From Oscillospiraceae bacterium (lineage in GTDB: Bacteria > Bacillota > Clostridia > Oscillospirales > Ruminococcaceae), in NCBI GenBank assembly GCA_965226565.1, contig CBDDDI010000004.1, positions 408,942 through 472,941 of the forward strand: 64,000 nt of DNA, read 5' to 3'. Below are positions 3,940 to 52,969 of the stretch, one piece after another. Every line of letters starts with the position of its first letter. Within the stretch, counting starts at the first letter, position 1. Position numbers and translations under genes: made by a program. The notes under the pieces were generated by a model. That model was not told the DNA's origin. It saw nothing but the letters and a program-made list of their open reading frames with translations, and ran no database searches.

Positions 3940-4935
3940 CTAGTCGCAATCTGGTGTAAAAGCTACATTTATTAAAATTTTTTCGATGTTTTTGTACAAA
4001 ATTTCTATACTCTCTCCAAGAGCCAATTTTGAGTCTAATTTGATTGATCCAATTTGAACTCTCTTTAAGTACGTAACTTTATTTTCCAATTTCTCAAACA
4101 TTTTTTTCACTTGGTGATACATTCCTTCATGTAATACTACATAACAACTCTTTGAATTTTTACCTTTATGGAATTCTGCCGGCAAACATTTTTCTCCAGT
4201 TTTTAATTGTATTCCATCTTTAAACTTTTGATCATAACTATCATCATATTCTTTTTCAAGTTCTACATAATAAACTTTTGAAACATGATGTTTTGGAGAT
4301 AACATTCTATGTGCTAAATCTCCATCATCAGTTATTAAAACAAATCCTTCTGTATCTTTATCAAGTCTGCCTGCTGGAAACAAGCCTTTTCTTTGCATAC
4401 TTTTTGGCACAAGAGATAAAACCGTAGGTGATAGTCCATCCTTTGTAGAACAGACTACACCTTTTGGTTTATTAAGCATAATATATATATTCTTTTTATA
4501 CTCTATTGTCCTGCCATTAAACATTACTATATCAGTTTCTGGATTTATTTTATATTCAGCTTTTTTTACTACAACTCCATTTACCTTTACAAGACCTTTT
4601 TTTAAATATTGCTTAACTATAGTTCTTGTTACATCTGTGATTTGATTAGATATAAATTTATCTATTCTTTCTGATTTATGGTGTTGTGAAGAAGAAGTCT
4701 GATGGTTTATCTGCGTTGGTTGGTGCACTTGTTGTTTCTGCGCTTGATTCGCTTGTTTCTGGTGCACTTGTTGTTTCTGCGCTTGATTCACTTGTTTCTG
4801 GTGCACTTGTTTCGCTGCTTGGTGCACTTGTTTCACTTGTTTCTGGTGCATTTGCTTCGCTGCTTGGTGCACTTGTTTCTGGTGAACTTGTTTCGGTGTT
4901 TGATTGTTCTGTTGCATTTGATATTTGATCTCCAT
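3940..4935 (-). CDS. rRNA pseudouridine synthase, RsuA/RluB family, with an about 88-aa Gln/His/Lys-rich repeat N-terminal extension (start uncertain)
   Basis: S4 domain from ERIDKFISNQ and catalytic motif GRLDKDTEGFVLITDDG. No ATG lies between 4935 and the S4 domain. AAGGA lies 5 nt before the ATG at 4935. Alternative in-frame GTG codons lie inside the repeat; the last is at 4728. Confidence 0.75.
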   Translation of the reverse strand: MEIKYQMQQNNQTPKQVHQKQVHQAAKQMHQKQVKQVHQAAKQVHQKQVNQAQKQQVHQKQANQAQKQQVHQPTQINHQTSSSQHHKSERIDKFISNQITDVTRTIVKQYLKKGLVKVNGVVVKKAEYKINPETDIVMFNGRTIEYKKNIYIMLNKPKGVVCSTKDGLSPTVLSLVPKSMQRKGLFPAGRLDKDTEGFVLITDDGDLAHRMLSPKHHVSKVYYVELEKEYDDSYDQKFKDGIQLKTGEKCLPAEFHKGKNSKSCYVVLHEGMYHQVKKMFEKLENKVTYLKRVQIGSIKLDSKLALGESIEILYKNIEKILINVAFTPDCD

Positions 4936-5499: not shown

Positions 5500-5533
5500 A
5501 AAAAAATGAAGAACTTTTCGACAAGAAAAGCTC
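5500..5533 (-). terminator. minus-strand intrinsic terminator upstream of the DUF4830 gene
   Basis: On the minus strand: GAGCTTTTC-ttgtc-GAAAAGTTC, then TTCATTTTTTT. The stem is 9 bp with one G-U pair. Confidence 0.6.
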
Positions 5534-5563
5534 CTCATTATTTGATTTTGTTAAATTTTTTAG

Positions 5564-5592
5564 TTGACAAATGTGCTAAAACAGATTATAAT
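5564..5592 (+). promoter_or_regulatory. consensus sigma-A type promoter with no downstream gene
   Basis: TTGACA (5564-5569), a 17-nt spacer, then TATAAT (5587-5592). Both hexamers are perfect. Confidence 0.5.
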
Positions 5593-5598
5593 GTAAAT

Positions 5599-5708
5599 AC
5601 AGTAGTTAATATAAAAGATTTATTGAAAGGCGTCTGCCTTTTATTTTAATAATTAAATATGTTTATTTAAAATAACCGTTACTTTTGCTGAGAGACGGTT
5701 ATTTTTTT
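5599..5708 (+). ncRNA. candidate about 50-110-nt antisense small RNA (ends inferred, not measured)
   Basis: The start is inferred about 7 nt after the -10 at 5587-5592. Two plus-strand terminators follow: AAAGGC-gtct-GCCTTT+TATTTT (5626-5648) and AATAACCGT-15 nt-ACGGTTATTTTTTT (5671-5708). No SD or ORF is present. It is complementary to the 3' end of the convergent minus-strand unit. Confidence 0.3.
5671..5708. terminator. bidirectional terminator shared by convergent small transcription units
   Basis: A 9-bp stem AATAACCGT/ACGGTTATT has a 7-T run on the plus strand and a TTTT run on the minus strand. The stop codon of the small minus-strand ORF lies inside one arm. Confidence 0.55.
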
Positions 5709-5776
5709 ATGTACTTAATAATCTCATTTATTGAAATTAAAATAAATAATACCATTGCCATCTCTAATATCTCCAT
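5699..5776 (-). CDS. candidate 25-aa hydrophobic peptide MEILEMAMVLFILISINEIIKYIKK (possible type I toxin)
   Basis: GAGG (5788-5785) lies 8 nt before the ATG at 5776. An in-frame ATG at 5782 would give 27 aa. The peptide has a hydrophobic core and a Lys-rich C-terminus. The TAA at 5701-5699 runs into the terminator. It was not in the ORF track because it is under 60 aa. Confidence 0.3.
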   Translation of the reverse strand: MEILEMAMVLFILISINEIIKYIKK

Positions 5777-5860
5777 AAACATCGCCTCGCTTTTTTCATT
5801 CCACTTACACCTATCTCAAAGCACACCACCTATCAATAAAATCATTTATATTATATATAT

Positions 5861-5890
5861 ATTATACCATAATATGTGTAATTTTGTCAA
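5861..5890 (-). promoter_or_regulatory. strong minus-strand promoter driving the small ORF
   Basis: On the minus strand: TTGACA (5890-5885), an 18-nt spacer ending in TGG, then TATAAT (5866-5861). This is an extended -10 TGgTATAAT. Confidence 0.5.
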
Positions 5891-38540: not shown

Positions 38541-38579
38541 CTAAAATAAAGAACAACCAAAAATATGGTTGTTCTTTTA
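38541..38579 (-). terminator. guaB terminator (bidirectional form)
   Basis: AAAGAACAACC-9 nt-GGTTGTTCTTT with flanking A/T runs. Confidence 0.7.
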
Positions 38580-38585
38580 CATAGA

Positions 38586-40076
<1,491 letters not shown>

Positions 40077-52160: not shown

Positions 52161-52188
52161 TAAAAAGAAAGACCACAATAAGTGGTCA
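52161..52188 (-). terminator. hairpin/attenuator between rpmH and rnpA
   Basis: On the minus strand: GACCAC-5 nt-GTGGTC followed by TTTCTTTTT. Confidence 0.45.
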
Positions 52189-52192
52189 CTTG

Positions 52193-52327
52193 TTAGTAAG
52201 AAAGTCTTGCTCTAGCTTTAGCACGTCTACGAGCTAAAACCTTACGTCCGTTTTTAGTTGCCATTCTCTTTCTAAAACCATGCTCTTTTTTTCTTTGAAG
52301 TTTTTTAGGCTGGTAAGTTCTTTTCAT
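52193..52327 (-). CDS. rpmH: 50S ribosomal protein L34
   Basis: Not in the ORF track (44 aa). The minus strand reads [51 protein letters not shown] lies 7 nt upstream of the ATG at 52327. Confidence 0.95.
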
Positions 52328-52969
52328 AAATAAATCCTCCCTTCAAAAACTGATATTATGCAGAAATTTATAATACATTTCTTTATCAATTATGAAATTG
52401 ATTTCAATAAAAAATTATGAAACCCTTGCAATTTAACATTATATAACATACACTATATTTTTGTCAAGTAAAAAAACAAAAATTTTAAATATCTTTACAT
52501 TCAACATTTTGTACATTTTAACGTGCAATTAACTTATTTAATATATAACATATTTAGAAATATCAATAAAAATAGACTTTAGGTAGAAAAATCAAAAAAT
52601 CTATGCTATACTATATAATGTAAAGTTGTATATTAATGACATTTAAAAACTTAAGAATTTTATAAATGGAAAAAGATTATAAAAACAACAAACTAAACAA
52701 CTTTTTCATAAACGATAGTACAAACTGTCGTCTATTTTTATGGTATAAATATTTATAGTATACATAATAAAAAAAATCAGCATCAAAATATTGCAAACAA
52801 AGTATTTAAAGTAACTCATCAAATATTTAGTAACCTTAGAAATAACCACATTATTGTATGATATATAAGTTGTAATTGACCATATATTATGCTATAATCT
52901 TTCTACACGTTTAATTTCAAAATAATTGACTTTATTAAACAAAAAATCACATCGCCGGGGGGATAATTA
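52328..52969. other. oriC: oriC left part / dnaA promoter region
   Basis: A 642-bp AT-rich spacer between divergent rpmH and dnaA. By eye there is no perfect TTATCCACA, only near matches ATAACCACA (52842-52850) and CATTCAACA (52498-52506). An extended -10 TGCTATAAT lies at 52890-52898. Confidence 0.5.

Follow-up and report, generated by a model that had tools for sequence, protein, structure and literature searches.

What does a long intergenic region encode when two perfect promoters face each other across it and the only open reading frame (ORF) between them has 25 codons? The question is raised by a locus in the genome of an Oscillospiraceae bacterium, within the 64,000-nt stretch that was analysed here as a whole and is referred to as the window (GenBank assembly GCA_965226565.1, contig CBDDDI010000004.1, positions 408,942 to 472,941 of the forward strand). 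The initial annotation of the window took the locus for a candidate type I toxin-antitoxin (TA) module, or for another pairing of a small peptide with an antisense RNA, and recognised no family for it. Comparison with related genomes supports and strengthens this proposal. The parts of the module exist and recur in other genera and in arrays as one conserved, often multi-copy unit that comprises the peptide, both promoters and the shared terminator; the ORF is selected as a protein, purifying selection being seen in the peptide; and the plus-strand RNA is a member of an RNA family that is widespread and lies facing small hydrophobic ORFs. We place the probability that the module is a chromosomal type I TA-like pair at roughly 0.6, and the group to which it belongs looks like a candidate new family of RNA-controlled TA-like pairs common in gut Clostridia.

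The inter-gene gap that holds the module measures 801 nt, compared with a median gap of 48 nt in the window (from a crude ORF call), and is as unusually long as first described, being one of the two longest in the window. The other, equally long by the same crude call, is a gene-free gap of ~790 nt at 52177-52969 between divergent genes. On the minus strand, the promoter of the peptide mRNA (TTGACA-18 nt-TGgTATAAT, 5890-5861) agrees with the consensus at 12/12 positions and has an extended -10 box, from the position of which a transcription start and a 5′ leader of ~78 nt (5777-5854) are predicted. The leader carries a direct repeat, GAUAGGUG, at 5834-5827 and 5815-5808 (the two copies may also be written as GATAGGTG), and a GAGG Shine-Dalgarno (SD) sequence at 5788-5785, 8 nt 5′ of the ATG at 5776 that opens the 25-codon ORF MEILEMAMVLFILISINEIIKYIKK (5776-5699, including the stop at 5701-5699); all of these elements were found as originally reported. 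An 11-codon ORF that starts at 5799 is also present in the leader, but a conserved role for it is not supported, as no conserved counterpart is seen in the relatives' leaders compared, and it is treated here as incidental.

The peptide ORF has a hydrophobic core and a K-rich C-terminus, and its K-K-stop codons are at the same time the A-tract of a bidirectional terminator, AAAAUAACCGU / ACGGUUAUUUU (5669-5705, with the U-tract extending to 5708), which is shared by the two strands and folds with a large loop in both RNAs. The presence of a hairpin at the ORF stop had been noted correctly, although its stem is not 9 bp long, folding giving 11 bp and two upper pairs in either RNA; our own terminator scan missed the hairpin, since its loop exceeds 8 nt. 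On the plus strand, the second promoter (TTGACA-17 nt-TATAAT, 5564-5592) is again 12/12, so that both consensus promoters stand where they had been placed, and a small RNA of ~110 nt (5599-5708, both ends predicted) would start from it. This RNA has a 5′ hairpin followed by U's at 5624-5643, a possible early stop. The small plus-strand hairpin had likewise been recognised at the outset, but the ~50-nt product ascribed to it would not be complementary to the mRNA, since an RNA that ends at 5643 has zero overlap with it.

Sixteen of the 25 residues of the peptide are A, I, L, M, F or V and the C-terminus reads KYIKK; it is thus a small hydrophobic peptide of fewer than 60 amino acids (aa) for which a membrane helix is predicted and whose C-terminus is charged, a pattern that is kept in 13 aligned relatives. 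With a profile from an alignment built without the window sequence (A1), the window ORF ranks first among the 52,195 six-frame segments of the genome (31.4 bits, E value 3.2e-7, next best 0.15). In 201 genomes of the family, the peptide as query gave 12 full-length matches of 48-52% identity in one genome (G102) and one or two matches in each of two further genomes (G158 and G209), and in 401 genomes of the order a 12-sequence profile found between 8 and at least 21 copies in 3/3 genomes of one genus (g97). Relatives of the peptide occur in four other genera. A further 17 genomes in the order-wide profile search were discounted, as their matches had E values of 0.004 or worse and lacked full coverage, and most lay inside longer open frames. 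The relatives align from the second ATG of the window ORF, and the 25-codon form is therefore the likely product rather than the 27-codon form that starts at 5782.

Selection on the peptide is evident from the paralogues. Nonsynonymous divergence is below synonymous divergence (pN<pS) in 45 of 47 comparable pairs, which are kin and so not independent (mean pS 0.37, mean pN 0.13), and between copies with the same encoded peptide 30-44% of the synonymous sites differ (pS 0.30-0.44). Gene callers nevertheless miss the family: public gene calls contain six matches among 1.84 billion cluster representatives, all miscalled with spurious N-terminal extensions and none named. Pfam and NCBIfam assign no family to the relatives' peptides, and no description of this peptide or RNA family was found in the open-access literature.

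The remaining parts of the module recur together with the peptide. Among 33 unique units extracted from six genomes, the sense promoter (TTGACA-18-TATAAT) is perfect in 28, 11/12 in one and absent from four, one of which had only 177 nt of upstream flank, and the antisense promoter (TTGACA-17-TATAAT) is perfect in 30, 11/12 in one and absent from two, one of them with a truncated flank. The antisense -10 box ends 82-109 nt from the stop codon across the units. In every unit printed, the final codons and the stop read A-rich-TAA-CCG and open the terminator AAAUAACCG...CGGUUAUUU, i.e. the stop codon lies inside the shared bidirectional terminator, the stem of which is invariant across the family and the loop of which holds a conserved UUUGG on the small-RNA strand. 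Tandem arrays of such units with a period of ~330 bp, in which the promoters of neighbouring units stand back to back, are present in two genomes (G102 and G480). The neighbours of the arrays are housekeeping genes (for RNase Y, NAD synthase, Pgk, Rnf and a Na/Pi transporter), and the arrays examined do not lie in evident prophages.

As the unit is quasi-palindromic, with the promoter and the first ~35-45 transcribed nt forming inverted arms, and is multi-copy, arrayed and patchy in its distribution, it might be viewed as a ~330-bp repeat element with inverted ends that has spread by recombination or transposition, the promoters and the ORF being incidental. Such an origin is very unlikely given the strong purifying selection on the peptide, the correct spacing of the SD sequence in the units read and the inward orientation of the promoters, which keep fixed distances to the ORF and the terminator; moreover, neither a transposase nor target duplications were found near the arrays examined. 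Arrays of 7-8 peptide units in genus g97 flank a pilin-like gene (N_methyl motif) in two genomes (L188:10462-13983 and L187:103-3515), and in L188 the flanking arrays lie on opposite strands.

The plus-strand RNA has a distribution of its own. A covariance model (R1) built from 27 RNAs of other loci, with the window excluded, gave 5625-5708 as its top match in the 64-kb window (38.9 bits, E value 3.7e-5). R1 matches are found in 36 of 151 genomes of the order and in 28 of 97 genera, with 6-29 matches in several genomes and at least 29 in one. Among 20 matches sampled from other genera, 11 lie opposite a hydrophobic ORF of 23-36 aa that is led by an SD sequence and has its stop in the terminator, two more face such an ORF on a looser reading and seven show none. 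A second R1 match in the window (38544-38621, minus strand, 23.2 bits, E value 0.024) was rejected as an ordinary terminator that directly follows a protein gene and has no facing small ORF. A scan of public genomes with the terminator pattern returned at least 176 matches at a minimum of 122 loci, and among the 176 matches listed 26 end a hydrophobic ORF of 15-45 aa. The convergent small RNA of these loci has an A-rich start, AGGAG, a hairpin CCG-AUAGA-CGGUUA, CCC and a terminator with a UUUGG loop, and the putative toxin leaders carry a related motif, ACGG-UAG-GCGGUUA-CCCUC. Rfam yielded nothing at or near threshold in the window and no family at threshold at the related loci. One of the contigs, labelled Segatella copri (L176), holds two tandem modules with a 29-aa peptide and a Firmicutes-type terminator; their place on a Bacteroidota-binned contig could reflect mis-binning or gene transfer.

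The same genome contains another module. Across its 1.87 Mb the terminator motif is present at two loci only, and both are such modules. The second lies outside the window (L003:1431-1745; G000:C5:246707-247030), has a release-factor-like gene and a tRNA as neighbours, and comprises a 33-aa hydrophobic ORF (MSEMIMIF...NAKK) that ends in the same terminator and faces a small RNA with a perfect plus-strand promoter. This small RNA is a member of the R1 training set, in which light its R1 match of 77.8 bits is to be read, and the 33-aa peptide has no Pfam match and no usable match in the ESM Atlas.

The promoters alone would not have carried this argument. Perfect TTGACA-16/18-TATAAT promoters number 80 in the genome (28.4% GC) versus 4-12 in shuffles and are therefore real features. 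Several of them have near-identical spacers (e.g. three copies of ...AAGAGAAGA(C/T)ACTGTGA...), pointing to promoter cassettes that occur repeatedly. The pair studied here is the only one in the genome in which perfect promoters converge at a distance of 100-700 bp; as ~0.5 such pairs are expected from 80 promoters, the pair is not significant by itself, and its significance is supplied by conservation in relatives. A chance juxtaposition of features in an AT-rich gap could draw on this expectation and on the abundance of promoter-like strings in AT-rich DNA (23 found versus 15 expected in a local scan), but it is the most far-fetched of the explanations considered, given that the four parts are found again in other genera in an unchanged register and that the homology statistics of both the peptide profile and R1 argue against chance.

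The manner in which the two RNAs might interact was examined by folding and duplex prediction. The predicted pairing is perfect over 41 nt (-60.5 kcal/mol) and is confined to the shared terminator. The plus-strand RNA had been described initially as fully complementary to the 3′ end of the mRNA, which is not supported: complementarity extends to the last ~41 nt only, and even this requires that the two RNAs stop at the shared hairpin. The segments 5606-5640 and 5820-5854 are the arms of an inverted repeat (inverted pairs 93% and 92%), and the first ~35 transcribed nt of the two RNAs are therefore alike and not complementary. Relatives whose sequences are quite different show this likeness between the leader and the beginning of the small RNA too, and in relatives the shared 5′ element includes a copy of the 3′ half of the terminator. 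Over the units, complementarity of the leader to the end of the ORF and the 5′ half of the terminator is enriched (mean z -1.8, with p<=0.05 in 13 of 28 units); the corresponding long-range 5′-3′ helix is not significant in the mRNA of the window unit (z -1.49, p 0.09). The small RNA has a stable fold (z -3.92, with 0/200 shuffles equally stable). In the mRNA of the window, the predicted minimum free energy structure pairs the SD sequence and AUG with downstream coding sequence, and in relatives an upstream CUCCC/CCCUC element could, as judged by eye, pair with the SD sequence; in par, the SD sequence is sequestered by an intramolecular stem.

If the module is a type I TA-like pair, the strong sigma-A-type promoter at 5890-5861 would give rise to an mRNA of ~190 nt for a single-helix membrane peptide of 25 residues, and the convergent strong promoter at 5564-5592 to an RNA of ~110 nt, with both RNAs stopping at the bidirectional terminator (5669-5708). 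The small RNA would pair with the terminator region at the 3′ end of the mRNA through the 41 nt of perfect complementarity, contact being made first from loop to loop at the unusually large terminator loops. Pairing may then make the mRNA less stable and/or less well translated, as in par RNA I/RNA II and bsrG/SR4, and in excess the peptide would be expected to harm the membrane. The bsrG/SR4 pair is described as acting at the 3′ region of the mRNA by loop-loop contact followed by decay or structural change, and the small RNA of the window would probably act by the same succession of steps.

A number of observations weigh against this reading. Complementarity that is limited to the terminator is a property of any convergent pair that shares a terminator, and predicted pairing between the 5′ regions of the small RNA and the mRNA is no stronger than in shuffles (z -0.3 in the window, mean z -0.16 over 28 units). 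The hairpin at 5624-5643 with its U's could end the small RNA before any overlap with the mRNA is reached. The fold of the mRNA is unremarkable (z only -1.43). The R1 match in the window is carried mainly by the terminator half, with the 5′ half aligning poorly, and is borderline at genome scale, where it is not listed at E<=0.001. In addition, the window copy lacks the conserved 5′ motif of the family (ACGG-UAG-GCGGUUA-CCC), and a leader model built from 22 relatives' leaders (R2) gives no match to the window leader at E<=10. The window peptide itself has no match among the Pfam and NCBIfam toxin families, nor in any Pfam family at E<=10. Lastly, the units and genomes compared are related, and their counts overstate independence.

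Two proposals on finer points were dropped. A par-type contact between the 5′ ends of the two RNAs is supported neither by the duplex energy, which is at the level of shuffles, nor by direct repeats, none having been found that join 5593-5660 and 5776-5855. Homology of the GATAGGTG repeats of the window to the family motif UAGGCGGUU is plausible by eye (the leader of one relative, L174, reads AUAGGUGGUUAG) and is not claimed, as R2 finds no window leader.

A conserved 5′ RNA motif that is undetectable, a small-RNA match that is weak outside the terminator and a U-run after the first hairpin are also what a decaying or silent relic would display, i.e. an AT-drifted copy in the window of a family that is functional elsewhere. 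The distribution within the genus points in the same direction: the copy was not found in six other genomes of the genus (70-96% complete), where the gap DNA has no match beyond the DUF4830 start and the peptide profile has none. We nonetheless regard a relic as improbable, since both promoters are perfect at 12/12, the ORF, SD sequence and terminator are intact, the two 5′ arms are still ~90% alike, the peptide keeps its 31.4 bits against the family profile, and a second, better-conserved module persists elsewhere in the same genome. The same six congeneric genomes bear on a further point. Because they keep DUF4830 while neither the gap DNA nor the peptide is matched in them, the module is, on this comparison of sequences, not a leader of the DUF4830-rsuA operon.

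Among known type I systems the closest are par and the TxpA/BsrG loci, and the module does not pass the sequence-based tests of either family. For par of the Enterococcus faecalis plasmid pAD1 (Fst mRNA RNA I and antitoxin RNA II, of the Fst/Ldr superfamily), PMC7472228 describes convergent promoters, a shared bidirectional intrinsic terminator and complementary stem-loops that start the RNA-RNA contact, as well as a toxin mRNA of ~200 nt, which is far longer than the other RNA, and a hydrophobic peptide that is small and has a charged C-terminus. The window module resembles par in its convergent promoters and shared bidirectional terminator, in the predicted lengths of its two RNAs and in the character of its peptide, but has neither DRa/DRb-type direct repeats nor 5′ complementarity above that of shuffles; unlike in par, its RNAs have like 5′ parts and its stop codon is inside the terminator. 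The peptide contains no P, G or W, hence neither the PXXXG motif nor the conserved Trp of Fst, and matches no Pfam family. As the DR repeats, the PXXXG motif and the Trp are all lacking, the module is, by these sequence features, not a member of the Fst family.

The txpA/RatA and bsrG/SR4 pairs of Bacillus subtilis are similar to the window module in that the antisense RNA lies on the 3′ side. The overlap predicted in the window is ~41 nt, compared with roughly 75-120 nt between RatA or SR4 and their targets. A further likeness to the TxpA/BsrG loci is that the module-specific terminator and small-RNA family are found in other Firmicutes beside ORFs that pass Hol_Tox (PF16935), which we take to be the TxpA family: of 18 peptides scanned from the ORFs that the terminator pattern ends, five pass the Pfam cut-off and three more fall below it. 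Rfam BsrG (RF01412) has no match in the window at E<=10. Two relatives give sub-threshold matches to this toxin-mRNA model (27.2 and 23.5 bits versus a gathering score of 55), in both of which the long-range 5′-3′ helix of the model aligns GGCGGUUA of the family with UAACCGCC. The window RNA appears to be related to the TxpA/BsrG loci, but tests of the peptide for membership in the TxpA family fail: none of 12 family peptides matches PF16935 at E<=10, hhalign against 10 Hol_Tox-like peptides gives a probability of 72.8% over 18 C-terminal columns, which is suggestive only, and the window peptide is without the N-terminal VTYxDL-type motif of the Hol_Tox-like alignment (A2). Relatives of TxpA are the proteins annotated as 'holin-like toxins' (PMC2887945).

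More distant parallels are found elsewhere. The type I toxins of Clostridioides difficile (CD0956.2-RCd10 and its relatives) differ from the window peptide in being 34-59 aa long and mostly encoded in prophages or beside CRISPR arrays, and NCBIfam CD_typeI_toxin matches one of the 12 family peptides, at an E value of 0.7 only. The enterobacterial Ibs/Sib and Ldr/Rdl pairs share with the window family very short hydrophobic peptides and repeated copies per intergenic region (PMC2887945). In these pairs, however, the mRNA fully overlaps the antisense RNA, and in Ibs/Sib the RNA spans the whole ORF (PMC8594479), whereas the overlap predicted in the window is limited to the terminator; the hosts differ too.

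The main rival to a TA-like pair is a non-toxic small membrane peptide under antisense control, e.g. one that modulates a transporter or sensor, or an amphipathic peptide that is released, the convergent RNA serving to tune its level. The conserved peptide, the promoters, the shared terminator and the RNA family fit such a peptide equally well, and at 23-26 aa the family peptides are below the published sizes of Gram-positive type I toxins (28-60 aa in B. subtilis and 34-59 aa in C. difficile, PMC6563280). The surroundings of the arrays, i.e. RNase Y, NAD synthase, Pgk and Rnf genes outside recognisable prophages or plasmids, also suit a non-toxic role, as does the finding that tblastn of the peptide against plasmid and phage collections gave no match. 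Even so, we hold this alternative to be less likely. At least 21 copies per genome, tandem arrays, a patchy distribution (0 in the six congeneric genomes) and an RNA chassis that serves many unrelated peptide families, some of them Hol_Tox, together form the pattern of type I toxin loci (PMC2887945), which differs from what is known of a dedicated accessory subunit.

The shared chassis also allows a wider proposal, which is tentative and on present evidence rather doubtful, namely that the module is a drifted copy from an extensive and so far undescribed superfamily of type I-like modules of gut Clostridia that is defined by its RNA. Here one chassis, made up of the small RNA, two consensus promoters and a terminator UAACCGC...GCGGUUA whose loop is conserved, would accept interchangeable toxin ORFs from unrelated peptide families, Hol_Tox included, and control would be exerted by mimicry of 5′ domains and not by simple antisense cover. 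The toxin leader and the small RNA would each carry the 3′ half of the terminator (GCGGUUA) beside an anti-SD element, such that in each RNA the only UAACCGC segment would be contested by three copies of GCGGUUA. Whether the terminator hairpin forms, the mRNA closes on itself by long-range 5′-3′ pairing (in the manner of the BsrG model of Rfam) or pairing occurs in trans would depend on the outcome of this competition.

Should the module work as a type I TA-like pair in the way outlined, it and its relatives would represent a family of membrane peptides under RNA control that annotation of abundant gut anaerobes has missed, with a small RNA that has no Rfam family. For Clostridia outside C. 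difficile, PMC2887945 and PMC6563280 give bioinformatic type I candidates only. A conserved chassis with swappable peptides means that one RNA model finds the loci whatever the peptide, and the arrangement raises the mechanistic question of how two RNAs that are alike in their 5′ domains and have a terminator in common control each other.

Between the module and the neighbouring DUF4830 gene, the identity of which is confirmed by Pfam, a strong minus-strand terminator (5539-5505) with a 15-pair stem followed by a T-run was verified as initially proposed. Further along, the frame of an RsuA-like gene (3940-4935) overlaps the 3′ end of the DUF4830 gene by 260 nt (4676-4935). The 3′ end of the DUF4830 gene is rich in Ser, Pro, Glu and Thr, and read in the other frame the overlap specifies a repeat rich in Gln, His and Lys; the real start of rsuA is therefore probably further downstream than the 3940-4935 frame implies. 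Similar Gln/Pro-rich N-terminal frames are present at three related loci (L005, L008 and L009), and overlap the DUF4830 gene in L005 and L009.

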